A stretch of DNA of 64,000 nt from a virus (lineage: Duplodnaviria; Heunggongvirae; Uroviricota; Caudoviricetes). The position numbers and the translations under genes are program-made. The first letter of the stretch is position 1; each line of letters opens with the position of its first letter. Positions 2,025-34,167 of the stretch are shown piece after piece. The DNA lies in the IMG/VR virus record IMGVR_UViG_3300029286_001043, positions 28,228 through 92,227 of that record, one strand, 5' to 3'. The notes below the pieces were generated by a model. The model was not told the origin of the DNA, made no database searches, and saw only the letters and a program-made list of their open reading frames with translations.

Positions 2025-3041
2025 TTAACTTAAACCAGAAATCGTTCCATGACAGAACGCGCCTGGATTAATTACCTTGTACGCAGCAGAAGAAAGAAAT
2101 CCCTTCTGAGCCTTCAAGTCTGTAGCAGTAATCAGCGTAGGTGTAGTGAACAGAGGAATATCATTTTTGTTACCATCACGAATGATGGGCTTAGTGATTT
2201 CTAGTTCTCCTAAGCTCCTAATATCGCTACTAGGATCAGACTGTACCATATTCTCTTTCGAGATTTGTCGATTACAGTCGTTGAACCTCTTGTCATTATG
2301 AAAATTAACAATCTTTGTTAACAAACTAACTCTATTAGAATCTACTAATTCGGATTCCCAAATAATAAGTAAATCATATCCGTGATCTTTAAAAAATTTT
2401 ATTCGATCAAATTCAGACATAATATTTGGAAATTTATTAGCATCATGCCAATAGTCGCCGAACATATCAATCATTTTGTTATTATTAATTGATATAATAT
2501 CCGGATGTCTATTACCGACTAACTTTCCGCCTTTCGGATAATTTAATTGATAACAGCCAGGTAAAATTGATTCCAAAATATTAATAAGATAAACTTCTTT
2601 ATCATTAGGGAAAGTCTTAGATGCCCGAATTACATTAGTAATACGGGTAGTATTTTTAGCAAGCTTGCTTTTAATCTTAGCACGTACTTCCGGCCTTTTA
2701 GCTGGATTCTTATCCCCAATCATCCTAAGAGGTGTATGTTCTGCACAATAAGTTGAATCACTATATGTTCTTATTTTGCAAACTGGACAATACTGCCAAG
2801 TATCTTTATACTCTTTCCCATCCCTATGTAATATCATATTTGTTATCATTTCTAAAGAATGTTTCTTACCATAAAATGGATTATTTTCACCTGTTAATTT
2901 GTTAACTCGATCATCTGATGTAAATTTAGTTATTCCATATAATTTAGTAGCTTCATCTTCAGTTATTTTATGTTTTCTTAACAAATGTATCTGCAAGAAA
3001 TCATATCTACTATCGCATATAGGACAACTTAATTTACCCAT
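2025..3041 (-). CDS. homing endonuclease-like protein (NUMOD3-like repeats + Vsr/DUF559-like PD-(D/E)xK nuclease domain) with C-terminal 44 aa duplicating the MCP C-terminus
   Basis: Motifs ENNPFYGKKHS and GDKNPAKRPEVRAKIKSKLAK (NUMOD3-like). HPDIISIN...MFGDYWHD...LLIIWESEL matches the PDF / IEVDGxxH / VLRFWE pattern of Vsr/DUF559 nucleases. The last 44 aa (IPLFTTPTLITATDLKAQKGFLSSAAYKVINPGAFCHGTISGLS) are 43/44 identical to the C-terminus of ORF 3183..4502. Confidence 0.7.
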   Translation of the reverse strand: MGKLSCPICDSRYDFLQIHLLRKHKITEDEATKLYGITKFTSDDRVNKLTGENNPFYGKKHSLEMITNMILHRDGKEYKDTWQYCPVCKIRTYSDSTYCAEHTPLRMIGDKNPAKRPEVRAKIKSKLAKNTTRITNVIRASKTFPNDKEVYLINILESILPGCYQLNYPKGGKLVGNRHPDIISINNNKMIDMFGDYWHDANKFPNIMSEFDRIKFFKDHGYDLLIIWESELVDSNRVSLLTKIVNFHNDKRFNDCNRQISKENMVQSDPSSDIRSLGELEITKPIIRDGNKNDIPLFTTPTLITATDLKAQKGFLSSAAYKVINPGAFCHGTISGLS

Positions 3042-3182: not shown

Positions 3183-4502
3183 TTAGGATAATCCGCTTAT
3201 TGTTCCATGGCAAAACGCGCCTGGATTTATTACTTTATACGCTGCTGAACTTAAAAAACCCTTTTGGGCTTTAAGATCTGTAGCAGTAATTAAAGTACTT
3301 GTAGTAAAAAGTGGAATATACGGGCAGAATGCAAATGCGCCTTGAATAAAACTGTCACCTTTCCATCCAAAGATTATTTCAGCTGCAGATAAGAACGGAT
3401 CATGAACAACAACGCGACCGTCCAGTGTACCTAAAACATAAGGACCTGTAGGTGTAATACCGTCAAGACCGGGAGCGGCTTTAAAGTTCGGAGCCAACTG
3501 ACGAATAAGTCTTGATGTATCGTTACCGGCAATAATCCAAGAACATTGCATCCTTAATGTCTTAGCTAAGATGTTAACGTTTGCTTTTTCAACGAAATCA
3601 AGGAACTGATATTTCTTCCAAATCCATTCTGCGCCAGTAGCAACAGTAGCGGAGAAATCGCCTGGAGTAGTAGCACAGCCAGTACCAGTTGAAGCATCGT
3701 TGATCAAGTCGATACCTAAGTGGTCCATCGTAACACGAACTTCTCCACCTAAATATTTTACTACTTCGTCTTCAAGAGAAAGACCATGAGCCTTCTGAAG
3801 ATCAAATGCAGCAGCTAAGCTGTATTGAGCCATCAGAGGGAAATCCTCGGCAGTTACTGTCTCATAAGTTAAGTCGAAATTAACTGAAGGAACAGCAGCT
3901 GAGGTCTTTGTTTCGTAGTTGTATTTGTATGTTGCGCTACCAGATGTGATCGCGAGGTCATTTGTAATTTCAATTGCACCAGTTGTATAGTTGATTGTAC
4001 CAGCTTCAAGTAAAGAAGCATCGTCAGCAACCAATACATTCGCGCCATTATCTGTATATGTACGAGTACCACCTGCATCTACAATGGTAATAACTGCAGA
4101 ACCGGCAATTACAGGAATATAAGCTAATGTACCAGTTTTAATGTTCGCAGCTTGTCCGACTTTAGTTGTCAAAACAACAACTTCGTCCTGAACTCTCGTA
4201 GAAGCATACCTACGACCAGCCCTTGTTGTATTATGGCCAGTTTTTGCAGCCATCATATTTGAATCTGCAGCAATTGCGCCTTTAGCCTGACCATACTTCA
4301 CGTCAAGATAAAAAACTCCGCCAGATCGGCGGTCTAAAGCCTGAACAATCGCCAACTCGTTTAATACTGTGCTAGGAATAAGAGCAGCTATAATAGGTAA
4401 CTGTCGTTCTGTAATCTCTTCTTTAGAAGAGTGTCGGACTATATCATCATCCTCAAAATATTTACTAATTCTATTTTGGGAGCTGGGCGCTATTTGAAAC
4501 AT
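3183..4502 (-). CDS. gp23: major capsid protein, T4 gp23-like (HK97 fold)
   Basis: 439-aa ORF in the head module downstream of the prohead protease gene. Composition and length are typical of T4-type MCPs. The conserved C-terminal tail is duplicated in the adjacent HEG. Confidence 0.75.
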   Translation of the reverse strand: MFQIAPSSQNRISKYFEDDDIVRHSSKEEITERQLPIIAALIPSTVLNELAIVQALDRRSGGVFYLDVKYGQAKGAIAADSNMMAAKTGHNTTRAGRRYASTRVQDEVVVLTTKVGQAANIKTGTLAYIPVIAGSAVITIVDAGGTRTYTDNGANVLVADDASLLEAGTINYTTGAIEITNDLAITSGSATYKYNYETKTSAAVPSVNFDLTYETVTAEDFPLMAQYSLAAAFDLQKAHGLSLEDEVVKYLGGEVRVTMDHLGIDLINDASTGTGCATTPGDFSATVATGAEWIWKKYQFLDFVEKANVNILAKTLRMQCSWIIAGNDTSRLIRQLAPNFKAAPGLDGITPTGPYVLGTLDGRVVVHDPFLSAAEIIFGWKGDSFIQGAFAFCPYIPLFTTSTLITATDLKAQKGFLSSAAYKVINPGAFCHGTISGLS

Positions 4503-5448
4503 TATTAGACCTTTCGTCTTCAGTTTCTAGTCTCTGCACCTTACAATTACTTAATTTATTGTCCATATTATCTTGTAATTCAGACAATAGAAAGGGTAAC
4601 TGTCTTGGCTCAGGATTACCATAAAAATAATTAAAAATATCTTTAGTATATAAACCATACATTAATCCATTAACCTTGCAATAATCTCTAAGAGCATTTA
4701 ATTTCGTTATCGTTAACTTATCATTTAATAAATGTGAACCTTTTATTTCAATTATTGCAATAGTTTCATTATTCACATTTAAAATTTTAAAATCTGGATA
4801 AGTATTATGCCCGTCATATGGAATAGCAAGTTTACTGCGCTGAACTATTAATAGAGAACCTATTCGGCGTTTAAATCCATGCAAAAATTCAAGTTCTAAT
4901 CCAGAACCGTAGAATACATTATCAAAATATCCACGTTTAACCTTTCCATAAAGTGATAATGAACTTCTAAAATCAATACCTTCTTGTGATGAATTCCATT
5001 CGTTCATCTTTATGGCAGTTCTATCATGATATTCCGGATCTGACCAAATCTTTGTCATTGATTTAGACATTTTTTCTCGTTTTAATATTGCCTTTTCTAT
5101 TCCCATTTGCTCTTCATAAGATCGAGAACTCTTTTCACTTAATTGTTTTCTAATTTGCAAGGCCTTCTGGATACCGTATTGCTGTTCAAAAGTTTTACAG
5201 CGTCTTTTATCGCCAGACACTTTCCCACCAATCTTAGTAAATCCCGTTTCCATTACTGTTTTAATAAGACCGGCTCGTTGTTTAGCTATCTTCTTATTAG
5301 CGTGTTCTTCACCATATCTTTCAATATATGATACCCCAGCTAATAAATGATTCTGATAACTAATATGACAAGACCGACTACAAAACTCGCGTTTCGACGG
5401 TATTTCCTTTGAACATTGTCTACAAATATTTTTAACTTTATTTTCCAT
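4471..5448 (-). CDS. homing endonuclease-like protein (Zn finger, NUMOD-like repeats, PD-(D/E)xK domain)
   Basis: N-terminal CxxC...CxxxC. Repeats YGEEHANKKIAKQRAGLIKTV and YGIQKALQIRKQL. C-terminal YPDFKILNVNNETIAIIEIKGSHLL is a PD-(D/E)xK core. Overlaps the MCP start by 32 nt. Confidence 0.6.
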   Translation of the reverse strand: MENKVKNICRQCSKEIPSKREFCSRSCHISYQNHLLAGVSYIERYGEEHANKKIAKQRAGLIKTVMETGFTKIGGKVSGDKRRCKTFEQQYGIQKALQIRKQLSEKSSRSYEEQMGIEKAILKREKMSKSMTKIWSDPEYHDRTAIKMNEWNSSQEGIDFRSSLSLYGKVKRGYFDNVFYGSGLELEFLHGFKRRIGSLLIVQRSKLAIPYDGHNTYPDFKILNVNNETIAIIEIKGSHLLNDKLTITKLNALRDYCKVNGLMYGLYTKDIFNYFYGNPEPRQLPFLLSELQDNMDNKLSNCKVQRLETEDERSNNVSNSAQLPK

Positions 5449-5791: not shown

Positions 5792-8700
5792 TTATTGCCC
5801 CATTGCTCTAAAAGCGGAAGCAATTTGTTTAGATATTACTGATTCTTCAATCGGCTCGCCAACATTGATCTCGGTCACAGGATTAAAGTGTAATCCATTT
5901 CCTCTAATCATGTCTTGAACCATTTCAATAAGTTTATCTACTTCCGATACTGACTTACATGATTCGAAAAGTGTTCGAACATTGTCAGGAAGCTTCAAAC
6001 CCATTGTTTTGACCTTTGTTTCGGTATATGTCTTAACGAGCCCCATAGCGTGGGACTCTTTAAGCAATCTAATTTGCTTCTCATTTGATTCTTTAAGCTG
6101 CTTTATTTGATCTTCGATATTCTTCAATTGTTTTTCTAATTTAGATTTTATTTCTTCGGCTTTTGCTAATGCAGAAGATTTATCACCTAATTTTTCATTC
6201 AATTCTTTTATTGTCTTCTTCGATTCTTCTAATTCCCCATGCTCTTTATGAAAATTAGCAGAAACTTTCACCAATTCCGCTGTTTTTGCATCCAAATGGG
6301 CAGATACGTCTCTTAGCTTAGAAGACAAATCTGAAACATCATGCGTATAATTTGCGGATACTTCGTTAACTCTCTTCTCTAATACAGTACCTAATTCAAT
6401 TGCCTTATCCCGTTCGGCAATTAGGATTGCTTCAGAAACTTTTGTTTTAGACTCATTATTAAAACCGACCCTTAATAATTCTTTAAAAAATGCGGGGTTT
6501 TCTTTCATAATTCTCTGCATTTCTTCTTTATCTTTTTTATCTGATTCCTCATTCGCTTCCTTAGCCTCTACCGTAGTATTAACCGTCTTGATCTCGCCCT
6601 TACCGTCTTCCCTCTTCTCTTTGTACTCTTCGGCCTTCTTGTCTTTAATATCCTGTTTGTCGATAATATCTTGCTTGACAGTTTCAGGTGTTGTAATTGC
6701 CGCTTCATTCTTCTTTTCATTCATATAAGTCTCGGCTCTCTTTAACGATTCTTTATATTCCCAAACCATTGTTGAACACTCTATAATTTTTTCTTGCCGT
6801 AAATCAATAACTATATCTATCTTTTTGCCCATTTTCTTTTCTAAACTGTCAGTTATTTCAGATATTTGTCCTTGATAATCGGTAGTAAATACATTAGAAT
6901 CTATTGCAACAAAAACATAATTTTCAGGCATAAATATAATATACCCGCCTATTAAATACTTATCCTCTTTTTTATATCCTAATTCAATTAAATCCTTTTT
7001 GCCATCATAATATTCTAATTTAGCAGAGCCAGTATTATATACCCAAGTGCCAATAGGTAAAGCTCCACGTTGTACAATAGACCAGGACCTAGATAAAACG
7101 GTTTGTTTTTTCTGTTCATCAGTTAAGTCTTTAAAGTCTTCAGTTAATCCTACTATTTTAATATATGCTTGATTTAAAATCAGACTCTCACCTATCTTCA
7201 TGATCTCAGCTTCCAATCCACGTCTCTGAATTTCTTTCATCAGTGCATCGACTTCCTTGTTTAATTCTTGATGATCGTCAGAAGCCATTGATTTATACCT
7301 AGTTAATATCTCTTCATTGGACAATTTGGAAAGATCTGCAGATTCAGTAATATCCTTTTTCTCTCCCGGCCCGCCAAATTCATTCTCTAATTCAGCTTCA
7401 GTTTTATCCACCAATTTCTTAAATTCAGCAGGACTGATTCCCCTCTTATCCGCATATTTCTTGGCCAATTCCGGATCGTCTGAACCTGAATTAATATAGT
7501 CAAGAATATCAGCCGGAACTTTCTTACCTTCCACCACCTTCGATTCCTTCATCAATGAATCAGGATAATGTTTAGACATTTTATTTTTGTTATTGGCCCA
7601 GAATAAATCGGCTTGTTTACTATACTTGCCCTTCCACCAATTTGCAGCAGCAACATTCGCCTTATCTTCTGGCCATCCTAATTGAGATTGACATTCAGCA
7701 GATACTGAACCGAAATTATTACCGCCGACTCTACCTGCTATAACACTTATTTGCCAAGCTTCTTTATCGGTCAAAACTAAACTCGCCTCTTCTACCTTGG
7801 CTTCAGTTACTACCATAAAATCCTGAGCCGAATCGTCTGAATCTAATTCAACTATAACCTTATTACCGTCCGCTTTCATATGAATAATATGCTTATTGCG
7901 TAATTCCTTAAACGTAGTCTCATTTGTTTTAGCTTCATTCGACACCTTAGCTCCTATCCACTTTACCTTATTAGATTTGCAAGCCGGACAAATCATTCGA
8001 TCGTTTTGATCTACTGAAACTGCAAATATATCTCCATTCCATCCACAGTCAGGACAGAACATTTTGCAGCTTTCGTCTAACGATTCTTTCAATTCTTCTC
8101 TAGTTCGAGCAATAACCTTAGGCAATAACTCCTTCAGCAATAAAACATTGTTCTCAGGATATTTCTCCCCTATTACTTTAACTATCTCTTCATCAGTATT
8201 GCCATCTATCACCATGTCCTTTACGACCGCTTCAATATCGTCGTAAATACCTTCGTCTAACTCCTTTAATTCATCCTTTAAATCTTTGGTAATGGTTTTG
8301 ATCTTCTCAGTATCATTGTTAATCTTTTGAATATCATCTTTAATGGCCTCATCGACAATTGCAGCATCACAGCATGAACTCTTGTCATCGCCTTGAGTTA
8401 CTCGAGCCCCACATTTAGAACAGACTTTGCCATGGGCGATCTTGTTGTCGTCGTTCTGATAGTCTTCTTTTACTTCAATTTTATTCTTTAATTTCCATAA
8501 TTCACCCGATTCTAATTTAGAAATCTGACCATCGTTTTCAGCCTTTTCTATTTCATCCTCAATTACTGATAATGCCGGTCTATTTATATAATTAGGATTG
8601 GTAATCATATCTACTAATTCATCGTATCTTCTGCTTTCTTTTACTTCGACTTCGTTAGCATGCTCACATCCGCCACTACACTTCTTTTCCCCTAACTTAC

Positions 8701-9379
8701 ATTTACACTCTTTATGCTGCTTGTCTATAGAAATATCTTCTTTCAGCTTGAGTGCCTTCTTCGATCCGGCCTTTTCTAATAAAGCAATAGCAACATTTTT
8801 ATTTATAGCATGAGATTCATAATTAGTCCGTACCGCTTTAACAATATCTTCAGGTTCAGTTTTAGAACAACTAGGATCCCCAGTGTGATCAACTGTAATA
8901 AATTTATATGAATCAGGTATTACTCGACTATACTTCTCGCCCGATTCATCAACTTCTTCTGATAATTCACCATCGGCCCTAGTACTTGCTGGAACTTTTA
9001 CGCCTGCTTCATGTAAAATCCAAATGAACTTTCCAGAATCTGTAGGAAGTATATCAAAATCAGCTTTAACCTCATTAGTAGATTCATCTATAAACATATT
9101 ACTAATAACATGTGAAGTCCGATCTTTATCTAATTTAATTGAAGATTCGGCTGGATGCTCATGCTCGCCTAATATTTGTCTAGCCTTTAATTTACTTTGA
9201 AATTCGGGATCATTAAGAACATTATCCCAGACTTTCCGTCCATAAATCCGTTTATTAGCATTTTTTTCGTCAATTACACAAATAGTCCGACGAATTCTAG
9301 CCAAAATACCGGATGGCAATTTTTTAGGATCGTTCTCTAAAATTTGTGTTTCATCTAAAATTCGTTCATTTAAATTCAT
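5792..9379 (-). CDS. gp21: giant prohead protease-like protein: N-terminal T4 gp21-like prohead core protease domain fused to ~1000 aa of zinc-ribbon and acidic coiled-coil (scaffold-like) sequence
   Basis: N-terminus NANKRIYGRKVWDNVL...ILGEHEHP parallels T4 gp21 NRNKRLYPKRILEKAV...LGELNHP. Several CxxC zinc ribbons (CPDCGW...CPACK, CSKCGARV). Long Lys/Glu heptad-rich C-terminal region. Continuous 1195-codon ORF. Confidence 0.55.
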   Translation of the reverse strand: MNLNERILDETQILENDPKKLPSGILARIRRTICVIDEKNANKRIYGRKVWDNVLNDPEFQSKLKARQILGEHEHPAESSIKLDKDRTSHVISNMFIDESTNEVKADFDILPTDSGKFIWILHEAGVKVPASTRADGELSEEVDESGEKYSRVIPDSYKFITVDHTGDPSCSKTEPEDIVKAVRTNYESHAINKNVAIALLEKAGSKKALKLKEDISIDKQHKECKCKLGEKKCSGGCEHANEVEVKESRRYDELVDMITNPNYINRPALSVIEDEIEKAENDGQISKLESGELWKLKNKIEVKEDYQNDDNKIAHGKVCSKCGARVTQGDDKSSCCDAAIVDEAIKDDIQKINNDTEKIKTITKDLKDELKELDEGIYDDIEAVVKDMVIDGNTDEEIVKVIGEKYPENNVLLLKELLPKVIARTREELKESLDESCKMFCPDCGWNGDIFAVSVDQNDRMICPACKSNKVKWIGAKVSNEAKTNETTFKELRNKHIIHMKADGNKVIVELDSDDSAQDFMVVTEAKVEEASLVLTDKEAWQISVIAGRVGGNNFGSVSAECQSQLGWPEDKANVAAANWWKGKYSKQADLFWANNKNKMSKHYPDSLMKESKVVEGKKVPADILDYINSGSDDPELAKKYADKRGISPAEFKKLVDKTEAELENEFGGPGEKKDITESADLSKLSNEEILTRYKSMASDDHQELNKEVDALMKEIQRRGLEAEIMKIGESLILNQAYIKIVGLTEDFKDLTDEQKKQTVLSRSWSIVQRGALPIGTWVYNTGSAKLEYYDGKKDLIELGYKKEDKYLIGGYIIFMPENYVFVAIDSNVFTTDYQGQISEITDSLEKKMGKKIDIVIDLRQEKIIECSTMVWEYKESLKRAETYMNEKKNEAAITTPETVKQDIIDKQDIKDKKAEEYKEKREDGKGEIKTVNTTVEAKEANEESDKKDKEEMQRIMKENPAFFKELLRVGFNNESKTKVSEAILIAERDKAIELGTVLEKRVNEVSANYTHDVSDLSSKLRDVSAHLDAKTAELVKVSANFHKEHGELEESKKTIKELNEKLGDKSSALAKAEEIKSKLEKQLKNIEDQIKQLKESNEKQIRLLKESHAMGLVKTYTETKVKTMGLKLPDNVRTLFESCKSVSEVDKLIEMVQDMIRGNGLHFNPVTEINVGEPIEESVISKQIASAFRAMGQ

Positions 9380-10047
9380 GTTTTACTCCCAATTAAATTA
9401 TCTATTTCATCTTCCCAAATAAATATAACTTTATAACCGGCAGTTGTAAATGGTAGAGAATCTATCTTCTCAACTGACCGTTTATTTTCCTCAGTAATTT
9501 CTAAACCATATTTACGTAAATGCCAGTAAATACCGTGAAAAAGAGCAACGGTCTTCAATTCTTCAGAATAAGCATCCGGCGATCGACCATTTATTAAAAA
9601 CGTACAATCACCAGTATATTTAAATTTGTTATTATAAATGGTATTTAAATAATTTAAAGCTTTCCCCTCAAATATATTAGGTCTATAACTAGCTTTAAAA
9701 TATGATTGTTTTAACCATTTTTCAAGTCCGATCTTTTTTATTACCTTTTTCATACTAACAGATTTCTTTGCCTTCGAAATTATCGCCTTTTCTTCGCCAA
9801 ATCTTTTATCAAAAGACATTCCTGTTAGCCGTTTACTTTGTATTTCAGCTAATTCTTGTATTCTTTTATCCGTTTCTTTAGACAAGCCCTTATTCCATGG
9901 ATCATTTGGAAAATTATGTTTATTTGATTTCCGTTTTTTTGGACTTTGATTAAAACATATTATTCCACAAACTTGATTCTTTCGATCTTTAGGATGAACA
10001 TATTTTTTGCCACAGACAATGCATATTCGTTCATCTTTTGTGCTCAT
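9376..10047 (-). CDS. homing endonuclease-like protein (NUMOD3-like + Vsr/DUF559-like nuclease)
   Basis: CxxC...C N-terminus. DPWNKGLSKETDKRIQELAEIQSKRLTG and FGEEKAIISKAKKS repeats. C-terminal RSPDAYS...ALFHGIYWH...YKVIFIWEDEI is the same nuclease pattern as ORFs 2025..3041 and 12061..13026. Confidence 0.65.
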   Translation of the reverse strand: MSTKDERICIVCGKKYVHPKDRKNQVCGIICFNQSPKKRKSNKHNFPNDPWNKGLSKETDKRIQELAEIQSKRLTGMSFDKRFGEEKAIISKAKKSVSMKKVIKKIGLEKWLKQSYFKASYRPNIFEGKALNYLNTIYNNKFKYTGDCTFLINGRSPDAYSEELKTVALFHGIYWHLRKYGLEITEENKRSVEKIDSLPFTTAGYKVIFIWEDEIDNLIGSKT

Positions 10048-10069
10048 TTATGTTCTCCAAATTAGTTAC

Positions 10070-10288
10070 TTACTTTTCTACTGCTTTAACCTCAAGTACC
10101 TTAACTTCAGTCGCGACCTTACCCTTAGCACTTTCACCTGGAGTAAACTCAACAGCCTGTCCGTCTAATAGATTCTTGTAACCATCCATGACAATACTCG
10201 TGAAGTGAACAAAATAATCTAATTGATCCTCACCGTTTACAAAACCCCAACCTTTTTGCTTGCTGAACCATTTCACTGTACCGTACAT
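10070..10288 (-). CDS. csp: cold-shock protein (CspA family, cold-shock domain)
   Basis: MYGTVKWFSKQKGWGFV...DYFVHFTSI matches the CSD signature (GxVKWFNxxKGFGFI, RNP-1/RNP-2). 72 aa. Confidence 0.85.
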   Translation of the reverse strand: MYGTVKWFSKQKGWGFVNGEDQLDYFVHFTSIVMDGYKNLLDGQAVEFTPGESAKGKVATEVKVLEVKAVEK

Positions 10289-10314
10289 TGTTGTTTCTCC
10301 TTTACTTGCATATA

Positions 10315-10512
10315 CTACTTTCTAATTACTTCCCCGTTTTCATTTACTGTAAATTCAGTAGCCAATACTTCTCGCAAATTCTTGTACATGCCGAATTCTA
10401 CCATCTTCCTCCGAATGCTGACCGGACTATTGCCGGTCAGCTCAGAGATTTTAGTTACTGTCAACTTCTCATCTATATGTTTCTCGATTAAGTATTCTTT
10501 AGTAAGTTCCAT
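10315..10512 (-). CDS. small helix-turn-helix DNA-binding protein
   Basis: LTVTKISELTGNSPVSIRRKMVEFG is HTH-like. The track ORF runs 10315..10572. The start is placed at the internal Met (MELTKEY...) to avoid a 52-nt overlap with the repeat-protein gene. Confidence 0.4.
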   Translation of the reverse strand: MELTKEYLIEKHIDEKLTVTKISELTGNSPVSIRRKMVEFGMYKNLREVLATEFTVNENGEVIRK

Positions 10513-10520
10513 AGTTCTCC

Positions 10521-11627
10521 TTACGCCTTGGACTGAATCAGACCATTCACAACTGTTATTGTGAAATCCCATCCATCGATGAAGGTACCAGTAAACCCAC
10601 TTACTGCTCCAGAATATCCTGAGAATCCAGAGATTCCAGAGTAACCTGATTTGCCAGAGTACCCACTGAATCCAGAGATTCCTGAATAACCAGAAATACC
10701 TGAGTATCCTGAAATTCCAGAATACCCGCTGAATCCAGAAATACCAGAATAACCAGAGAATCCACTTATACCCGAATAGCCAGAGAATCCAGAGATACCT
10801 GAATAACCTGAAAATCCAGAGATACCAGAATAACCTGAGAATCCACTTATACCACTATACCCGCTATAACCTGAAATTCCTGAATAGCCAGAAAATCCTA
10901 ATGTAGTAGGTTCTCCTGAAATTCCAGAGTATCCGCTGAATCCTGAAATACCGCTATATCCAGAGATACCAGAATATCCTGAAATACCGGAATATCCACT
11001 ATACCCTGAGATACCTGAATAACCAGAATATCCTGAGATTCCTGAGTATCCGGAGATTCCACTATAGCCTGAATATCCTGAAATACCCGAGTAGCCAGAG
11101 TAACCAGAGATTCCAGAATAACCACTAAATCCGGAAATACCTGAGTAACCTGAAGTTCCCGGGCTATCTCCTGAATATCCTGAAGTTCCTACTCCTGAAT
11201 AACCAGAGATACCAGAATAACCTGAGTAACCAGAAATTCCGGAGTATCCACTGAATCCTGAAATACCGCTATATCCTGAATAGCCTGAGATTCCAGAATA
11301 TCCACTGAATCCTGAAATACCTGAGTATCCGGAAAATCCTGAAATACCAGAGTAACCAGAATAACCGCTGATTCCAGAGTAACCACTTATACCACTGTAA
11401 CCTGAAATTCCAGAGTAACCTGAGATACCGGAATAACCAGAAAATCCTGAAATGCCTGAGTAACCTGAAATACCTGAGTAACCTGAGATACCTGAGTAAC
11501 CTGAGATACCGGAATAACCTGAATATCCAGAGATACCTGAATATCCTGATTCCCCGCCGGCTTGACCAGAGATTCCAGAATAGCCGCTTGCTCCTGTACT
11601 GCCTCCACCACCGTGATATATACTCAT
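10521..11627 (-). CDS. hexapeptide-repeat fibrous protein, (G-Y/F-S-G-I-S)n ~55 repeats, with a short non-repetitive C-terminal domain
   Basis: 368-aa ORF made almost entirely of GYSGIS/GFSGYS units. C-terminus AVSGFTGTFIDGWDFTITVVNGLIQSKA. Open through a ~1-kb 18-nt tandem repeat. Other frames of the repeat are also open (the 75/65/74-aa shadow ORFs). Confidence 0.65.
   Translation of the reverse strand: MSIYHGGGGSTGASGYSGISGQAGGESGYSGISGYSGYSGISGYSGISGYSGISGYSGISGFSGYSGISGYSGISGYSGISGYSGISGYSGYSGISGFSGYSGISGFSGYSGISGYSGYSGISGFSGYSGISGYSGYSGISGYSGVGTSGYSGDSPGTSGYSGISGFSGYSGISGYSGYSGISGYSGYSGISGYSGISGYSGYSGISGYSGYSGISGYSGISGYSGISGFSGYSGISGEPTTLGFSGYSGISGYSGYSGISGFSGYSGISGFSGYSGISGFSGYSGISGFSGYSGISGFSGYSGISGYSGISGYSGISGFSGYSGKSGYSGISGFSGYSGAVSGFTGTFIDGWDFTITVVNGLIQSKA
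10575..11600. repeat. tandem 18-nt (hexapeptide-coding) repeat array
   Basis: Imperfect repetition of units such as cctgaaataccagaataa/cctgagtaaccagaaatt throughout. Confidence 0.8.
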
Positions 11628-11663
11628 AGTACTCTCCCTCTTAAGAAATTATATATAAGGCCG

Positions 11664-12107
11664 TTACGCTAATGTTAAATCTACAATCGTAGCATTTGCT
11701 GCATATACTAATATAATAGATGAAACTGCTGTAGCATCGATACACTGCTTGAACCCGTCTCCGGTAATCAAACTAGTTGCCGGAGTATTTGAAGCCGAAT
11801 TGAAGAATACGTCTACCCGCCCAGTTACACAATAAATATCCAGATCTAAAGTGAAGTTTCCAGTAGGTACTGTAATTGTGTCTACTTCAGTATCGTCTCC
11901 AGTATATGATTCTGAAACTATATTGCTATTACTTGCATATGGGGCATCTGAAGTCTTCGTTATCCCCGTAGGCAAAGGAGTTCTGATTGTCTCATATGTT
12001 TCCTTTGATTCCCCGGGTTCTATTCTTGTACTTCCGACTGTTACTACTGTTGCTGTACTGTTAAGATAGGTTGGACACATGTTCAACTCCTTCTTTATGA
12101 AATTCAA
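11664..12107 (-). CDS. hypothetical protein, Thr/Ser/Val-rich (possible structural/beta-rich)
   Basis: 147-aa ORF downstream of a HEG. The start may instead be the internal MCPTYLN Met at 12080. Confidence 0.4.
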   Translation of the reverse strand: MNFIKKELNMCPTYLNSTATVVTVGSTRIEPGESKETYETIRTPLPTGITKTSDAPYASNSNIVSESYTGDDTEVDTITVPTGNFTLDLDIYCVTGRVDVFFNSASNTPATSLITGDGFKQCIDATAVSSIILVYAANATIVDLTLA

Positions 12108-13026
12108 TTAATTTTTGTTTTAATAATATTTTATCTTTTAACTCTTTTTCCCAAACAACTAAAGTTTTATAGCCATACTCACTATATTTTTGTAATCTAT
12201 TATTATCTTTTTCTTCAGAACCTGATATATTATGCCAATAATCTCCATAAAGCTCAACAATCTTCTTTTGACCGTTAATATTTATAAAATCAGGAAAGAA
12301 TCCTCCTATCATAACTTCAAACCCACCTACAAATTTGTAGTTACTAGGAAATAAATTATTTAGTATATCTAATAATTTTTGTTCTGATTTATTAATTTTT
12401 TTATTATGAGAACTAGCTTTAGTCATCATTAACATATGTTCTTTAGAATTAACTTGATTTGTTTTAGCTTCTTCCTTTTTAATTCCAGACATATTTTTAC
12501 ACACTTCATCTCGTTTTTCGGTATGTGACCAATGAGATTTGTCCCTCTTTGCTCGATATTCAGGACTTTTCCACATATTTAATCTGGCAATACTTCTATT
12601 CTGTATAGCTTCAGGAGTAGCATTACCAATTTTTCTTTTCTCTAATAATTTATCTCTTCGGATAGGATCAGACCATATTTGTTTCCAACCGAATAATTTA
12701 TAATTTATAACACACAAATGAGAACAGAATTGTTGATCAGATCGCTTACCTATAAATATATTATTACATGTTAGACATTGCTTTTCTTTTATTTTAGATT
12801 TCACATTTTCTCTATAACATTTTCGAGAACACACTTGTTTATATCCTTTAATTATATGAACAAATTTTGTAGAATTACCACATATTATACAACACCCATC
12901 TAATTCTTTCTTTAAGTATTTATCATAATAAACCCTAGAAGAAAGTTTATGCGTTCTCCATACATGTTTAGATAACCCTATTATAGTATTAAATTGTCTA
13001 TTACATATTAAACATGTACAAATCAA
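12061..13026 (-). CDS. homing endonuclease-like protein (multiple Zn fingers + Vsr/DUF559-like nuclease)
   Basis: Cys-rich N-terminus (CxxC x4). FPDFININGQKKIVELYGDYWHN...YKTLVVWEKEL nuclease core. TTG start preceded by AAGGAGAAAAGG. Confidence 0.65.
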   Translation of the reverse strand: MICTCLICNRQFNTIIGLSKHVWRTHKLSSRVYYDKYLKKELDGCCIICGNSTKFVHIIKGYKQVCSRKCYRENVKSKIKEKQCLTCNNIFIGKRSDQQFCSHLCVINYKLFGWKQIWSDPIRRDKLLEKRKIGNATPEAIQNRSIARLNMWKSPEYRAKRDKSHWSHTEKRDEVCKNMSGIKKEEAKTNQVNSKEHMLMMTKASSHNKKINKSEQKLLDILNNLFPSNYKFVGGFEVMIGGFFPDFININGQKKIVELYGDYWHNISGSEEKDNNRLQKYSEYGYKTLVVWEKELKDKILLKQKLIEFHKEGVEHVSNLS

Positions 13027-13147
13027 CCTTTTCTCCTTGCTTAATTCCTAAAATTATGGGCGGCAAATAATTTGCTGGCGCGCCTTCATTACGAGTATCA
13101 GTCGTAGAAGAGCTGACGTCCTTTTATATAAAGGCCGCCCGAAACTA

Positions 13148-15424
13148 TTATTCTTTCATTGATTCCTGAATCGACTTCAGTATATCTTTATTCTCTACAT
13201 GAACTACTTTTCTCTTCGACTCATATGGCTTCTTGTCGATCTTCATATTCAAATCATTAGCTAATCTTCTGATTTCGCTATCAGCACCTTCCCATGTTTC
13301 CCAAGCTTCAGAAGGAAGATTGTCTACTACATAATCAGTTACTTCAGAATTCCCCTCTAATCCAGCCTTATGAGCCATTCTAACGAGCTCTTTGATCTTT
13401 CCTCTATACTGAGGGCCGATCGTGCGAGCTTCTTTGATCTTCTTTGAATCTCTTTCCTTCTTGCTTAATGGAGTATAAGGATAAAGTGTTCCGGTACCTT
13501 TGTCGCCATCATCCACTTTGTCTTCCTTCTTCGCTTCTTCAGTAACTATATCAGGTTCTACAACTGGAGCTACTTCCTCTTTCTTCTCTTCTCCAGGAAT
13601 ACCAGTTATAGTACGATCGATTGGTTGTACCTCAGGATTTACCGTCGTCACCTGAATTCCACCTTCTGTAGTAACGATGTTAGTTTCCTTATCCTCGTCC
13701 TTTATAATTACCTCGACATCTTCTTTCACCTGTGCTTCATTGGCCTTTTCGGCCTTGATCGGCTCTTGAACTTCTTCCTTTACCTTAGGATTATTTACAC
13801 CTGTTGATGTAATTTTGGCATGTGATAAAGCAGTCAAGACATCTAATATTCTTTTTGCTGGCATTCCAATACTTATAAGTGCTTGATTGATCTGACCCCA
13901 AGTATATGTTTCATTGTTGTCTTCAACAATCTTCTCTTCTCTTACTCCTTGCTGCATTAATACCTGACTTACATAAGGAACCAGTTCGTCATCAGCCTTC
14001 TGCTTTTCTTCAGGAGTAAGATCATTATACTTCCTCTTGAATAAATAATTAGCAATATCATCCATCAACTGCTCAGAAGTTACATTTTTTTCAATAACTA
14101 CCTCTTCTTCAATTTCTTTCTCTTCTGTCTCAGTAGGCTCGGTTGTCGGCTCTTGAGGATTCTTCTCGAGAGCTTCCTTGCGCCTAGTTAATGCGGCCTT
14201 CAACCTAGTCTCTTGTTCGGCAGTAATATCTCCCTTCGTTGCGGTCTTCTCGATTCGGTCCATTACTTCTTCGAGCGACACAGCATCTATAGCTTTGTGG
14301 ATCTTGCGAAGGATTGAAGTAGCAGTTCTAGTTACAGCTGCATTCGCTTCGTCTTCTTTCTTGCCTTCGACTATTGATTCATTAGGATTTACTAAATTAT
14401 TCACGTATTCCTCCGTCTCTCTATTCGACAAAGCACCAGAAACATTATCTAATACCTGTTGATAAATACTATTTGAATCCTTCATTCCGTTCTTCAAACA
14501 TTTATCTACAACTAATCTGATTGCATCCTTTACATTAGGGCTGATCGATTCACTAATCTTTATCTTCACTTTACCGCTCATCTCGGAATGCTCATCATTA
14601 TAATCCTTCAATGCAGCTTCAGCATTCTCTTTCTTTCTATAAGTAGCAATTACTTCTTCGCCTAATACAATCTGGAATACTTTCTCGTTTACTGACTCAT
14701 ATATCGTTAAAATCTTGGCTTCACGATTAAATTTAGCTACTTCCTCTCCTAATACTAAAAATAATATACTATTTCCAGTTTTAGAATCTTGAGTCTCTTC
14801 CCAAGTAATTCCCTTTTCCTTTAATATATCCTTTGCCTCAGCAAAATCATGACAGACTTCGGATTTAGATTCGTTTACTCTCGACTCATTTGGTACTTTC
14901 GGAGTTACTGTATTCTGAGTCGACGGTCCGGTACCTTCAGCCTTGATCTCATCCTTTACTTCAGGTACCTCTTCTTCAGGCTTTACTTCCTCTTCTTCTT
15001 TCAGGAAATACTTCTCGACTATGTCTACAGATACTGACGTCGCCTCGACCTTCTTCATCGCTGCCAATATAAATTCAGGAATGTTTGATATGTCTACACC
15101 GAGCTCAGCTGCATCGGCCAAGGTGTTCTCTGACGCGTCTATAAGTATCAGGTTGTTAACTGTACCACTTGCATCCATGTCCCGCTTCAGATAAAAATAT
15201 TGATCTGCCCCTTTTGCCCCTAAATATTCCTTCTCATCAGGAAGCTCTTCAGTAGGCTCGGTCTCAGGCTTTACTTCGTCAGTCGGCTTCTCGCCAGTAG
15301 GAGGAGTTGAACCTTGAGGATCTTCTGTCCCGCTGTCCTTTTCAAGTGGATCGACAGGCTGCTCGTCCTCAACTTCAAATAGACTCTTCATTTCCAATAT
15401 TAGATTCTTAGTTCGCTTAAACAT
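13148..15424 (-). CDS. large acidic protein (Glu/Lys/Pro/Thr-rich; candidate scaffold/internal head or decoration protein)
   Basis: 758-aa ORF with long E/K/P/T-rich low-complexity stretches in the head-gene block. No enzymatic motif. Confidence 0.5.
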   Translation of the reverse strand: MFKRTKNLILEMKSLFEVEDEQPVDPLEKDSGTEDPQGSTPPTGEKPTDEVKPETEPTEELPDEKEYLGAKGADQYFYLKRDMDASGTVNNLILIDASENTLADAAELGVDISNIPEFILAAMKKVEATSVSVDIVEKYFLKEEEEVKPEEEVPEVKDEIKAEGTGPSTQNTVTPKVPNESRVNESKSEVCHDFAEAKDILKEKGITWEETQDSKTGNSILFLVLGEEVAKFNREAKILTIYESVNEKVFQIVLGEEVIATYRKKENAEAALKDYNDEHSEMSGKVKIKISESISPNVKDAIRLVVDKCLKNGMKDSNSIYQQVLDNVSGALSNRETEEYVNNLVNPNESIVEGKKEDEANAAVTRTATSILRKIHKAIDAVSLEEVMDRIEKTATKGDITAEQETRLKAALTRRKEALEKNPQEPTTEPTETEEKEIEEEVVIEKNVTSEQLMDDIANYLFKRKYNDLTPEEKQKADDELVPYVSQVLMQQGVREEKIVEDNNETYTWGQINQALISIGMPAKRILDVLTALSHAKITSTGVNNPKVKEEVQEPIKAEKANEAQVKEDVEVIIKDEDKETNIVTTEGGIQVTTVNPEVQPIDRTITGIPGEEKKEEVAPVVEPDIVTEEAKKEDKVDDGDKGTGTLYPYTPLSKKERDSKKIKEARTIGPQYRGKIKELVRMAHKAGLEGNSEVTDYVVDNLPSEAWETWEGADSEIRRLANDLNMKIDKKPYESKRKVVHVENKDILKSIQESMKE

Positions 15425-17689: not shown

Positions 17690-20600
17690 CTATTTATTAA
17701 AACTTTCTGGAATTATCTTCGCTTTCCCATATTGCTCTTCCCACTTCGTATTCTTTCCTTCGTTCAGCGGTAGTGCCGCCTTCAAATCTGAATTGTCGAT
17801 CCTTGCATTTATACTTGCCTTGAATGGATTCTCTCCTGCACCGGCCGCCATTGGTGCTCCTCCTACTTCGCCCTCTTCTGGAATCTCTGGGGTAGTAAGA
17901 GGCCCTACTTGCTGTTCTACTTCTTTAACGACCTTGTCAAAATCAAAGTCAGACAAGTGCAAGATCTTCTCGTTGAAGTATTTCAGTACTTCTAATTTAT
18001 TGTACCCAGTCTCGCCTAATGTAGTATTCAAAATTTCAACCATCTTAGTAACTACATCGGCTCCACTCGACAGTCCTTCCATCAATTCAGCATTTTCGGC
18101 AGTAGACGTTTCTCCCATCTTTAATTCAAACATCTCTAGATCTGGATCTTTACCTTGATAGGCTAAATGAATCTGCACTAACCTAGTCAATCCTACAATT
18201 AGAGCTCTTTGAATTCTTCGGCATTGACGAGAGAACCTAATATCAAGACGTTCGAAGTTATTACTTCCTATTCCACTGGGTACATCCTTCTGATATCCAC
18301 CTAACAATTGTAACGGTACTCTTAAAGCACAAGAGAGTTGATCTCTCAACTCTTCAATATCCCTTATCCATTTTATATCTACCTCCCCACCTAATTTTTC
18401 TATTCGTACACTATTGACATCTCCCCATACAGGCAGGATTATATCTTCCACGGCTGAATTATGTAAAAATACGCCAGCAGCAACCGGAAAATTATGGTTA
18501 TGTTCTATTTGAATATCATAAGTATCTTCACGTTCAATTAATTGTTCAACTCTAATTACTTTGTGATTCTGAATTACGGCTAAATCAGATTGTACTTTCT
18601 GTTTTCTTTCTGTCCATATCTTTGTAATTGTTTCCCCGATAACTCGGTCATAATGTTCTCTATTTTTATATTTTTGAGTATGTGTTTTTATACATTCGAA
18701 AGTCTCTCCACAACCGCAAGCGCAAGTCCTCGTTTCACGCCGATTTTTATATTCAATTTTAAATTTAGGACCGGATGGACATGAATTGATGTGCGCACCT
18801 AATGATCCGGCAGTTCCTAACCATGTTATATAACATAGCGGACAGGTTAATTGTCTAAGTTTTTTTGCTGATTTTTTCTGTTTAGATTTTATTATTTTCG
18901 CTTTATCTTTACCGTAAATTTTATCGTAAGAACCTAATTTTTTACCTTTATTTTGTTGAATTTGACCGATATGACTAATTGATAACTGTTCCTTTATTTG
19001 TTTCGCTTTATTTTCGCCATATAATTCAATATATGTTTTATTTTTGCGTGTTTTACTAAATGAATGTTTTCGCTGTTTAACTTTTATCTGTTCAGCCTTT
19101 TCTTCCCCATATATCTCTTCATATGTTTTACCAGTACAATGCTCTTTCGACCATTGCCCGCCAAACTTACTATGATAGGCCCAATGATCAATATAATGCA
19201 TCAATTCAAAATTGGTAGGATCATTATTTAATTTATTAAAATCAATATGATGAATAGACATACCGCGTTTTGGCTTTTCGCTATTGCTTTTCTTAAAAAC
19301 TAATCTATGTTCATAATGATATTGATTATCGGCTGGATTATATACTAATCTATACCCAGGTAATCCAGGATTCGTTGCAATTTTAGTATACAATGGCATA
19401 AGACTTTCACTTTGTCCTAAATCCTTAGCCATTTTGTATTCCCCATTCCTCAGCATAAATCGATGATCCGGTGTACAATCTATATATTGTTCGTTGTCTA
19501 AATGGACTCGAATTAATTCGGCATTCAATCGAGTTTTACATACTCCTACTAGTTTATTAGGTTCTAATTCTAAAGTTTGTTCATTAATAGTCCATACTGA
19601 TTTTCCAATATATTCATTTGGTTTTTCTGCCATTTCTTCGATTGTTGGTTCAGTACCATCCAATAAACTTATTTTAGTATTTCCTCTAAGACATAAATTG
19701 TCCATTCTCTCTTTATATGGATTTGGACTAGTTGCTGAAATATCTAATGAATTGTGAACAAAAATACCATCAGTTAATCCAAAATTATGATTTCGTTCTG
19801 TGGTTATATCATAAGTATCTTCTCTAATAACTAATCTTTCTACTCTAACTACCTTATGATTAATAATTGCAGGTTCTAATTTTCTTCTTGCCCATGCCAG
19901 TTTTAGAGATTCAGATCTCCTTTTTAACGTCTCTGGTGACGGTTTAATTCCAAGGTGTCCTTCACTCATATGTTTTTTCGATTCGGCGGAATGAATTGTA
20001 CCTTTATTCTTTACCCCAATCTTTTGTTTATGTTCTTCAGTCATCGGCTTATTTTTTCTATTATGCCCAACTGCATATTGCCATAAAGACGTAATTATAA
20101 CTTCTTTGCTATAACCACATCCACATTTACAAAAACGAATTTCGTGCGGTAATCTTAAATACCGTTTTCCGGCTAAAAAATTGTTTCTGCGTGATTCTTT
20201 TTGTTTATTAATATTTTCAATTGGCCTTTTATATCCAGTTCGTGATTTAGAAATTTTAGCGCAAATATGACTATTCTCTTTAGTTAATCCCTTTGTTACA
20301 TGAGGCTTAACTAATCCTAGAGACTTCTTCACTAAATAGGTTTCAGCTTTCTTTGCTAATCTTTCATCCGTTTCCTTAGTTAATCCTTTACTCCACCCAA
20401 GCTTTAAAGATTTATTATATGTTTTGTATTTACCATCCTTAGAATTTTGAATATTATGTAAAGCTAAATGTCTCCCTCTAAGTTCAAATTTTAAATTAGA
20501 TGGATCATCATCGCATTTTCTAAAATTCTTATGATGAATAACATGTCCTTTCGGCGTTTTGCCGAATAAAAATTCGAATGCAGTTTTAAATACCAATTCA

Positions 20601-26184: not shown

Positions 26185-26874
26185 TTATTTTGCTTCAGGT
26201 TCTTGTCCTGGCTGTTCACTTTCAACCTCTAGTTGTTCTAGTTTTAATATTTCTTTAGTGAGATTATCTATAAACCGCTGCCTATCCATAGGAGATAACT
26301 TATCTAAATCCTTAGGCAATCCATCAACTTCATCCTTCCCTTTACCTGTCATTACAATTACATTCTGCTTTCTATTAATTACTACACTAGGATCTTGGGC
26401 TTTAGTATATCCCATCTCTTTAGCAAAAGCAATTAAATGCTTATCCTCTTCTCGAAGTTCAGTCAGCAACTCTTTCTTAATCCGATATATATCCATATAA
26501 CTAGCAATCTCGGTCTCAGCCTTCAAATGACAACCTAAACATTCATACCAATTATCTAATGAATCTTCATGTAATTTAACAGCTGAATGACAGCATACTG
26601 ATACTCGACCCTGTTCAGCACCATCCAGACTTCCTAACATTTCAAGTATTCTAATCCGACGAGCCTTATACCCAACACTGATAAAACTCATAATTGATTC
26701 AGCTACTGCATTTCGTTCAGGCGAAGTCTCGGTCTTCTTTATTTTAGCGATTCTACTTAACACATACTCTTCAGGCAACCCGACCTCTTGCAGTACTAAG
26801 CTTATATCCCCTAAATTACGAAGATATGACTTCTTTATCTGCTCGTCAACTCTAAACTTGTCAAGATTATTCAC
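26185..26874 (-). CDS. hypothetical protein, positional candidate for terminase small subunit
   Basis: 229-aa ORF just upstream of TerL with a CCHS...CLGCH metal-binding motif. No sequence support beyond position. Confidence 0.3.
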   Translation of the reverse strand: MNNLDKFRVDEQIKKSYLRNLGDISLVLQEVGLPEEYVLSRIAKIKKTETSPERNAVAESIMSFISVGYKARRIRILEMLGSLDGAEQGRVSVCCHSAVKLHEDSLDNWYECLGCHLKAETEIASYMDIYRIKKELLTELREEDKHLIAFAKEMGYTKAQDPSVVINRKQNVIVMTGKGKDEVDGLPKDLDKLSPMDRQRFIDNLTKEILKLEQLEVESEQPGQEPEAK

Positions 26875-27598
26875 TCAGATCCTCTCGATCAATAATGGCT
26901 AATACATCAACTTCATGCAAAATAAGTAACTTTTCACCATCCTTGTTTGTAATTGAATTAAACGAATTCTTACTAAATACTACCGTATCACCAACCTTTA
27001 CCGACATAGATGAAATAGTACCATCATCTAAAAGACGACCCTTCCCTACACTAATTACCTTACCCTTCGGCTGTTCTTGTTGAATTGATTCAGGTAAAGC
27101 TATTCCTCCTCGAGATTGCGTCTCAGGAGTCAATTGCTTAACTATAATACGATCCGCTAATGGTTCTATCTCCATATTCTCTCCCCTCGATACCCCCTTT
27201 ATATCCTGATACCCCATATATGGTATTCTATATGACTTGTTATCCGTTCCTTCAACATCATAGCGCCAAGGTATTCCTTTGTCATATACCACTATATCAC
27301 CGACTTCAATTTCAGGTTTAATAAATATCTTTCCGTTTCTAAGATATCCAGGCCCAACTGTTAATACCATACCACAATCACGTTCAATATTTGACTGAAC
27401 TGAATCAGGTATAATAATTAAACTTCGGCTCCTTCGAACATATAGCGGATATATAAATACAATATCCCTTACCGCTTGCAGCGGAAAATTAACGCCGCCA
27501 CACGCCGGACAAACAAATGGGACATTATACTTATTTACATTACCCTTTATCTGAGACTTTACTTTTTCTGAGTCGAGTCCACAAGTATTACAATTCAT
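26867..27598 (-). CDS. groES: co-chaperonin: N-terminal Zn ribbon + two tandem GroES (Cpn10) domains (gp31 functional analogue)
   Basis: C-terminal EIEPLADRIIVKQLTPETQSRGGIALPESIQQEQPKGKVISVGKG...VKVGDTVVFSK...GEKLLILHEVDVLAIID is a canonical GroES. The preceding ~100 aa (LIIIPDSVQSNIERDCGMVLTVGPGY...EIEVGDIVVYDKG) repeat the same pattern. N-terminus has CNTCG...CPACGG. Confidence 0.7.
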   Translation of the reverse strand: MNCNTCGLDSEKVKSQIKGNVNKYNVPFVCPACGGVNFPLQAVRDIVFIYPLYVRRSRSLIIIPDSVQSNIERDCGMVLTVGPGYLRNGKIFIKPEIEVGDIVVYDKGIPWRYDVEGTDNKSYRIPYMGYQDIKGVSRGENMEIEPLADRIIVKQLTPETQSRGGIALPESIQQEQPKGKVISVGKGRLLDDGTISSMSVKVGDTVVFSKNSFNSITNKDGEKLLILHEVDVLAIIDREDLSE

Positions 27599-34165: not shown

Positions 34166-34167
34166 AT

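Follow-up and report, generated by a model that had tools for sequence, protein, structure and literature searches.

A gene on the minus strand at 10521..11627 of a 64-kb stretch of viral DNA (IMG/VR record IMGVR_UViG_3300029286_001043; the whole stretch of 64,000 nucleotides is referred to here as the window) encodes a collagen-like protein that we consider, with moderate confidence, to be a fibre protein of the phage particle. The window is that of a very divergent T4-type phage: its G+C content is 34%, and identity between its gp23-like capsid protein and any deposited phage does not exceed 30%. Assignment as a fibre protein is based on the triplet runs of the protein (40, 27 and 32 triplets), on its matches to Pfam and PHROG families, on the repeats of its relatives and on a signature of selection. 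It is further supported by a strong ribosome-binding site belonging to the gene itself, by orientation on the same strand as the head genes and by placement between the genes for the portal and for the prohead protease and gp23. For such a fibre, we infer formation of a trimer and a triple helix, presence in the virion, a site of attachment and an adhesive role.

A Gly-X-Ser repeat of period three

The open reading frame (ORF) is intact, with 368 codons from an ATG start to a TAA stop codon at 10521-10523. The product has a mass of 35.1 kDa and a pI of 4.4 and is dominated by Gly (118 residues, 32%), Ser (109, 30%), Tyr (50, 14%), Ile (40, 11%) and Phe (17). Only two Gln and one Asn are present, together with two Lys (Lys326 and Lys367) and five Asp/Glu, and both Arg and Cys are absent. 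The two Pro residues of the protein sit inside interruptions, such that the repeats themselves are Pro-free.

Gly occupies 104 of the 123 positions of one triplet register, and only 4 and 10 positions of the other two, a distribution far beyond chance. Given that Gly is concentrated in one register, the true period of the repeat is three amino acids (aa), or 9 nucleotides (nt), of the form Gly-X-Ser, and not six amino acids or 18 nt. A total of 106 Gly-X-Ser triplets were counted, in which X is Tyr (49), Ile (36), Phe (14) or another residue (7). The initial annotation had described approximately 55 near-perfect hexapeptides. A repeat that is near-perfect at the level of the protein was indeed observed, but the hexapeptide is not its unit and the number was an overcount, exact GYSGIS hexapeptides numbering 36 and GFSGIS none. 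The triplets are instead arranged in 16 GYS-GIS and 22 G[YF]S-GYS-GIS units, i.e. as a mixture of hexapeptides and nonapeptides, broken by three interruptions of collagen type.

No N-terminal domain is present, Gly-rich sequence being reached after five residues. Residues 1-24 (11556..11627; this and all of the following segments are on the minus strand) comprise MSIYH, a Gly run, the four triplets GAS GYS GIS GQA and an extra Gly that shifts the register. Block 1 (residues 25-144; 11196..11555) then consists of 40 unbroken Gly-X-Ser triplets. It is followed by interruption 1 (residues 145-156; 11160..11195), where GV, GTS GYS GDS and P produce a double register break that is likely to act as a kink or hinge. 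Block 2 (residues 157-237; 10917..11159) contains 27 triplets and block 3 (residues 244-339; 10611..10898) contains 32; between them lies interruption 2 (residues 238-243; 10899..10916), GEPTTL, in which Gly is missing from one triplet. Register breaks of such kinds occur in non-fibrillar and bacterial collagens. Besides the collagen-like gene, no second Gly-X-Y run of five or more triplets was found in the window. The protein had also been termed prion-like or silk-like, a description that does not agree with a strict period of three with collagen-type interruptions, since silk has a period of two and prion-like sequence is aperiodic.

Collagen (PF01391) was the only Pfam family detected in the protein, with a score of 154.1 bits (cut-off 27.2; E = 7.9e-46), and no C-terminal receptor-binding or chaperone domain was found. 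The best PHROG matches were to phrog_6320 (2e-54), phrog_5073 (4e-49), phrog_819 (1e-36) and phrog_1806 (5e-32); the best families are annotated as tail fibre protein, tail protein or collagen-like minor tail, and the matches are limited to the collagen part. The suggestion of a collagen-like fibre, which formed part of the initial annotation, is thus upheld by Gly at every third residue, by the Pfam score (154 versus 27 bits) and by PHROG families of collagen-like fibres. When the whole protein was used to search the sequences of the PDB, only animal collagens and BclA were retrieved, the latter (1wck) as a weak match (E = 4e-4). A megablast search with positions 9000-14000 against known phage records gave no match; tblastn with the complete protein, which its low-complexity filter masks, gave none either.

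Relatives with the same repeat chemistry are numerous among uncultured phages. A large metagenomic protein database yielded 987 proteins with E ≤ 1e-5. Within the collagen runs of the 120 best-scoring of these, Ser occupies 79% of Y positions, and X is Tyr, Phe or Trp at 45%, Ile at 11% and Pro at ~1% of positions. At least 493 viral loci in IMG/VR encode Gly-aromatic-Ser relatives, and the uncultured-phage proteins share the G-[YF]-S and G-[ILV]-S triplets of the protein described here, with up to 82% identity over the repeat. The 80 IMG/VR loci that were examined mostly contain ORFs that are 500-3000 aa long, comprise 100-800 triplets and end in C-terminal domains of 50-250 aa or more; in comparison with these, the present copy is a minimal, stand-alone stalk. 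A C-terminal domain of ~220 aa is recurrent among the relatives, and Pfam PF13884 (endosialidase-chaperone) was found in several of the 987 database proteins. The string SDxRLK in the C-termini of several relatives is presumably also of the endosialidase-chaperone type. Example contexts of the relatives resemble those of tail fibres: a siphovirus-type contig carries two adjacent collagen-like genes after its tail genes, and several collagen-like paralogues were found on very large phage contigs. The Gly-aromatic-Ser repeat is therefore a common, uncharacterised building block of phage fibres, and a search of a library of papers for the repeat strings retrieved none containing them.

In one 170-kb phage contig (L012, 1-5661 and 12052-17854), a collagen-like protein of >2500 aa is composed of GFS-GY[SI]-G[LT]S blocks. 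A second collagen-like gene adjoins, and 2 kb away is a gene whose 2990-aa product contains numerous glycosyltransferase and methyltransferase domains. This neighbourhood hints that Ser-rich phage collagens may be glycosylated.

The last 29 residues of the protein (340-368; 10524..10610, minus strand) form a non-collagen tail, GAVSGFTGTFIDGWDFTITVVNGLIQSKA, which in translation has the character of beta-strand sequence. A small globular C-terminal domain had been described at this end of the protein, but the tail is all that is present, and its length is insufficient for a monomeric globular domain. It is the sole candidate within the protein for an element that could mediate trimerisation and registration, or attachment. 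The non-collagenous NC2 domain, of 35 residues, can set the trimer register in type IX collagen (PMC8968730), and a tail of 29 residues is therefore not implausibly small for such a role. A word-index protein search with the C-terminal 41 aa gave one candidate and zero hits, and the back-translated pattern GWDFTITVV had no match in IMG/VR. The tail of protein P0019, TGTFTTVDSKTVTVTSGIIVSIV, looks alike, but its alignment score of 42-46 was equalled by shuffled queries, and homology is not established. The FxIVYNGLI motif of some of the 220-aa C-terminal domains was likewise considered as a relative of the tail and was not significant.

Nucleotide sequence of the repeat and constancy across samples

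The gene had been described as a near-perfect tandem array of 18-nt units. Analysis with Tandem Repeats Finder revealed no single 18-nt array in the gene, but 18 overlapping rows with periods of 18, 27, 36, 45, 63, 81 and 99 nt and 62-85% matches. In-register units share a nucleotide identity of 0.54-0.63, and no exact direct repeat is longer than 26 nt, so that the description does not hold at the level of the DNA. Ser is encoded by AGY codons at 22 positions and by TCN codons at 87.

A null model was obtained in 300 simulations by keeping the protein sequence fixed and randomly reassigning the synonymous codons of the gene itself among its positions. The longest repeat had a mean of 23.5 nt in the simulations, 80 of which reached the observed 26 nt or more, and identities at shifts of 18 and 27 nt were indistinguishable from those of the codon-shuffled sequences. 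Repeated 15-mers were slightly more frequent than in the simulations (104 versus 62; reached in 2 of 300), and a small excess of identity was observed at a shift of 81 nt (6 of 300 simulations); these excesses are faint traces of old block duplications. Given that a near-perfect amino acid repeat is maintained over randomised synonymous sites, with Ser encoded through both AGY and TCN, the units are at synonymous saturation and the protein has been under long purifying selection, rather than being the product of recent slippage.

Shadow ORFs of 54, 75, 65 and 74 aa are present, as had been noted, but all four belong to a single alternative frame on the same strand, in which 10 stop codons occur. 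The third frame contains 8 stops, and each frame of the plus strand 12-44, so that the other reading frames are not open, contrary to what had been claimed. With synonymous sites scrambled to the level of random codons and both alternative frames closed by 8-10 stops, a slippage-prone, frame-switching array of the kind initially proposed is not supported.

The region was recovered by means of neighbouring-gene anchors from ERZ27250635, ERZ27250570, JGI 3300028581 and SRR8536341, and an identical collagen-like protein is encoded on six contigs. The recovered copies are 99.97-100% identical to the window with zero indels, and the four single-nucleotide polymorphisms (SNPs) between them, at window positions 13697, 13706, 13721 and 16106, all lie outside the gene. 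Length polymorphism, which had been suggested as a check on the initial proposal, was thus not observed: no SNP, no indel and no polymorphism in repeat number was found in the gene across these four samples, a comparison of low power because the genomes are near-clonal (99.97-100% identical). Collapse of the array during assembly had been raised as a source of error; with exact repeats of at most 26 nt and agreement among three independent full-length assemblies, it is unlikely. A search for close phage relatives was aimed at testing variation in repeat number. With gp23 as the query, it gave one distant locus; with the 138-aa protein encoded upstream of the collagen-like gene and two of its homologues as queries, no match was obtained in IMG/VR, nor in a scan of metagenome contigs.

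Two further observations concern the recovered sequences. In SRR8536341, two Logan contigs (the end of L008 and the start of L011) stop inside the array at ~11394-11400 and overlap by only 7 nt. No exact repeat reaches 31 nt at this break, and low coverage or local heterogeneity could be its cause. In the locus from ERZ27250570 (L002), bases 1-553, located in the gene (13148-15424) for an acidic protein of 758 aa, have no alignment to the window; the rest of L002 is 99.98% identical to it, and three SNPs cluster at the boundary (13697-13721). The pattern points to a segment of recombinant or mosaic origin in the gene for the 758-aa protein.

Position within a head-gene cluster

The T4-like head-region context that had been assigned to the gene was confirmed by the identification of gp23, Portal_T4, Peptidase_S77 and gp13. 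The collagen-like gene is preceded by a 36-nt spacer that separates it from the gene for the 138-aa protein. A ribosome-binding site, GAGGGAG (11634..11640, minus strand), is read from the sequence 6 nt 5' of the ATG, and the spacer also contains a TTATATATAA box (11649..11658, minus strand) that might serve as an element resembling a late promoter. Exact copies of the T4 late consensus, TATAAATA, show no enrichment in the window, where 10 occur and 16.7 would be expected. Directly downstream lies a 65-aa helix-turn-helix-like ORF (10315..10512, minus strand), for which neither Pfam nor PHROG gave a match. The AAGGAG site of this ORF overlaps the collagen-like gene at its stop codon, and the two genes are therefore translationally close-packed. 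An alternative 85-aa version of this ORF, starting from 10572, would overlap the collagen-like gene by 52 nt.

Transcription of the cluster proceeds from the portal gene (17690-23125, minus strand; 1811 aa) through genes for a 187-aa protein and small ORFs to those for the acidic 758-aa protein (13148-15424, minus strand), a DUF559-type endonuclease-like ORF (12061-13026, minus strand) and the 138-aa protein, which is jelly-roll/cupin-like and all-beta (11664..12080, minus strand; directly upstream of the collagen-like gene). Beyond the collagen-like gene and the 65-aa ORF are a gene for a cold-shock-domain protein inside the head cluster (10070-10288, minus strand), a 223-aa ORF (9376-10047, minus strand) that faintly matches Vsr-type endonucleases, below the Pfam threshold (E = 0.086), a gene for a 1195-aa protein (5792-9379, minus strand) and gp23 (3183-4502). 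The gp13-like gene (1096-1794) is located beyond gp23, 9 kb from the collagen-like gene.

The 1195-aa protein starts with Peptidase_S77, a prohead protease of the T4 gp21 type, and has a long coiled-coil C-terminal part. It also contains large inserts, including zinc-ribbon-like Cys clusters, and from its sequence looks like a protease-scaffold fusion with large inserts. In the portal product, three stretches match intein splicing domains and HNH/homing-endonuclease domains are also present, the Portal_T4 match being confined to residues ~1557-1736; the portal of one relative is likewise intein-bearing.

The 138-aa neighbour, an MPTYxNS protein, belongs to a family of jelly-roll/cupin-like proteins of ~130-145 aa (including P0122-P0222) that have no Pfam or PHROG entry and form a conserved part of the head-gene cluster in divergent phages of the T4-like type. 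A structure model of the neighbour, built from an alignment (the single-sequence fold had a pLDDT of 38), matches cupins and Ena jelly-rolls, and because no conserved His is present, the family is probably structural. A separately encoded C1q/TNF-like head for the fibre was considered and rejected, the matches of this model being to cupins and Ena jelly-rolls and not to C1q/TNF. In one T4-like contig the family occurs in the order portal ... 854 aa - 132 aa - 705 aa ... gp23, and in another a member lies upstream of the S77 protease. The gene that follows the family member differs in each related locus, and no collagen-like ORF was found in the related T4-like loci with this family. The collagen-like gene therefore appears to be a lineage-specific addition to a variable, homing-endonuclease-rich stretch of the head cluster. 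In one relative, ORFs with tail-fibre PHROG matches occur in the same stretch. A Rosetta-stone link between the 138-aa neighbour and collagen was also sought in the fused members P0135 and P0164, which proved to carry a beta-rich extension of ~320 aa that is not collagen; a short ISIGAVEIKD-type motif alone links these two members to the downstream gene in L016 (E = 0.18).

Free-standing homing-endonuclease-like ORFs (NUMOD3, DUF559/Vsr-like, HNH and TnsA-like) are unusually dense amid the essential head and replication genes of the window, lying on the minus strand at 2025-3041, 4471-5448, 9376-10047, 12061-13026, 33641-35384, 42601-43356 and 56690-57616. A thymidylate synthase ORF (45801-47108) also has a NUMOD3 motif. 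Elsewhere in the window, a 243-aa protein (26867-27598, minus strand) has a GroES/Cpn10 domain as its C-terminal half, and an NAD-dependent sugar epimerase/dehydratase resembling GDP-mannose 4,6-dehydratase is encoded at 31673-32707 (minus strand). Those ORFs of the window that were scanned included no glycosyltransferase, only this sugar epimerase/dehydratase, and no tRNA for Gly, Ser or Tyr was found in the window.

A probable collagen-like virion fibre and the alternatives

If the protein is a virion fibre, three chains would wind their 328 triplet-register residues into a homotrimeric triple helix. The resulting rod could be up to ~94 nm long (328 residues x 0.286 nm) if all of it were helical, and would bend flexibly at both interruptions. 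Chain register would be set by the beta-type tail of 29 residues, which might alternatively dock the fibre onto another virion protein. With the side chains of X and Y facing outward, the rod would present an uncharged surface of Tyr, Phe and Ile together with Ser hydroxyls, which might support weak multivalent adhesion to polysaccharide-rich surfaces. Since a receptor-binding head is missing, such weak adhesion, or a function as spacer or decoration, is a more plausible role than the specific recognition of a receptor. A fibre of the head or neck is attractive given the position of the gene in the head cluster and the jelly-roll neighbour, to which it is linked by adjacency alone; this 138-aa protein is a possible virion anchor for the fibre.

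There are precedents for such an assembly. Phage collagen triple helices have been established experimentally for EPclA of an Escherichia coli prophage (PMC3368898), and a "bacteriophage collagen" was described by Smith et al. in 1998 (as cited in PMC1079782). The collagen-like tail fibres of phages (P-SSM2 orf028, EPclA and the proteins of PHROG 6320/5073/1806) likewise have long Gly-X-Y runs and a structural-gene context, and by comparison a trimeric rod would be expected here. Ser/Thr-rich triplets are found also in orf028 of P-SSM2, a T4-like cyanophage (PMC1079782). EPclA has Pro at nearly half of X positions, charge pairs, and the PfN, PCoil and PfC domains for capping and trimerisation (PMC3368898). 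By contrast, the protein described here has neither Pro nor charge pairs in its repeats, lacks an N-terminal domain and ends in a tail of 29 aa.

BclA, which forms the exosporium hair of Bacillus anthracis (PDB 1wck), is also a collagen-like filament with a hydroxyl residue at Y, in this case within GPT repeats. It has Pro at X and a C1q-like trimerising head of 134 aa, both of which are missing here. BclA is glycosylated on its repeat (PMC8968730). By analogy, glycosylation of the 106 repeat Ser residues would be chemically possible, and O-glycosylation of Ser could, as in BclA, compensate for the missing Pro and charge pairs.

A further comparison is provided by the fibritin (wac) whisker of T4, a long trimeric fibre of a T4-type phage, whose foldon matches the 29-aa tail in size and position. 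The foldon is a C-terminal beta-type element of ~27-30 residues that nucleates trimerisation of fibritin. Fibritin has a shaft of alpha-helical coiled coil and binds the neck through an N-terminal domain; its gene is next to gp12/gp13. By contrast, the shaft of the present protein is Gly-X-Ser throughout and the gp13-like gene is 9 kb away, which distinguishes it from a fibritin-type whisker. The foldon and the tail showed no likeness by eye, a comparison for which no alignment was run.

Several observations weigh against a collagen-like virion fibre. In the host-guest peptides of Persikov et al. (2000), aromatic residues at X and Ser at Y reportedly have low propensity for the triple helix, and the stability of such a helix is therefore unproven. 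The repeats are Pro-free and almost uncharged (5 acidic residues and 2 Lys in the protein), whereas characterised bacterial and phage collagens use Pro, charge pairs or Thr, with Pro occupying between a fifth and a half of the X positions (PMC3368898, PMC8968730). An N-terminal attachment domain and a C-terminal head are both absent, and none of the best 120 relatives is short at both ends. The matches to profiles rest on Gly periodicity alone, the three best PDB chains aligning to the protein at Gly positions only. Although the C-terminal domain was sought in collagen-like phage proteins, as had been advised, comparison of the tail with 168 C-terminal domains from related proteins revealed no significant similarity; a PHROG scan of the tails and a tblastn search with the C-terminal 33 aa against phage records also gave no match. 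Finally, the gene is not in a tail or baseplate module, in contrast to the known phage collagen-like tail fibres, and the position it occupies after the 138-aa gene is filled differently in each related locus.

Some of these observations would be explained if the gene were a functionless remnant, truncated or decaying, of a longer collagen-like tail-fibre gene that had been moved into an endonuclease-rich island or cut down within it. The N- and C-terminal domains of the relatives are both missing, endonuclease-like ORFs lie on both sides (9376-10047 and 12061-13026), and other genes are found at the syntenic position in relatives. We regard this explanation as unlikely: a frame of 368 codons has remained intact while its two neighbouring frames hold 8-10 stops, the ribosome-binding site is strong, the same sequence is present in four samples, and near-perfect protein repeats despite synonymous saturation point to sustained purifying selection. 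Another alternative is a hypervariable contingency locus, in which slipped-strand mispairing would alter the repeat number or frame and so the length of the fibre or its on/off state. The protein is indeed built of tandem units, gain or loss of 9, 18 or 27 nt in frame would be tolerable, and the excess of repeated 15-mers (104 versus 62; 2/300), the slight excess at 81 nt and the break of the SRR8536341 Logan contigs inside the array at ~11394-11400, where local heterogeneity is possible, are in keeping with it. However, with a longest exact repeat of 26 nt, unit identity at the level of random codons, alternative frames that end within 75 codons and neither indel nor SNP in the gene across four samples, a contingency locus is highly improbable.

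The protein might instead be of low complexity, rich in Gly, Ser and Tyr, and either disordered or of a cross-beta or condensate-forming type (FUS- or silk-like), acting inside the infected cell or as an internal head protein. Its composition is like that of [G/S]Y[G/S] regions, its repeats lack Pro and folded terminal domains are absent. In the gene order of T4, the position corresponding to that of the collagen-like gene is taken by gp67/gp68, which code for prohead core proteins. A strict period of three maintained over 106 triplets, in which Ile and Phe alternate with Tyr, is nevertheless foreign both to aperiodic regions and to silk of period two. Moreover, relatives with the same repeat bear C-terminal domains of the fibre type, and no T4-type L/I-x-E protease site was seen near the N terminus by eye, no scan having been run. 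We therefore give little credence to a low-complexity protein.

For the collagen-like fibre itself, a more specific and rather doubtful proposal is that Gly-(Tyr/Phe/Ile)-Ser, free of Pro and of charge pairs, folds as a stable triple helix or as another rod of polyproline-II type. This would be held together by an inter-chain ladder of Tyr/Ser hydrogen bonds or of aromatic side chains, or by O-glycosylated Ser, and the ~94-nm bare stalk would hang on the capsid or neck via the upstream jelly-roll protein. If this were correct, the protein would be a collagen head fibre of a T4-like phage with a stability outside the known rules for collagen.

Collagen-like phage fibres have been known since the 1990s, and the gene itself is therefore no surprise. 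It is an unusually minimal example of a kind of gene that is already common in uncultured phages. The gene is also a clean example of a perfect protein repeat written in scrambled codons, and serves as a warning against reading genetic instability from a repetitive translation. The Gly-aromatic-Ser chemistry of its product contradicts the usual requirements for triple-helix stability, and a 35-kDa protein with almost no flanking domains is a convenient minimal test object for the folding of Pro-free, uncharged collagen, a subject relevant to collagen biophysics and to biomaterials.

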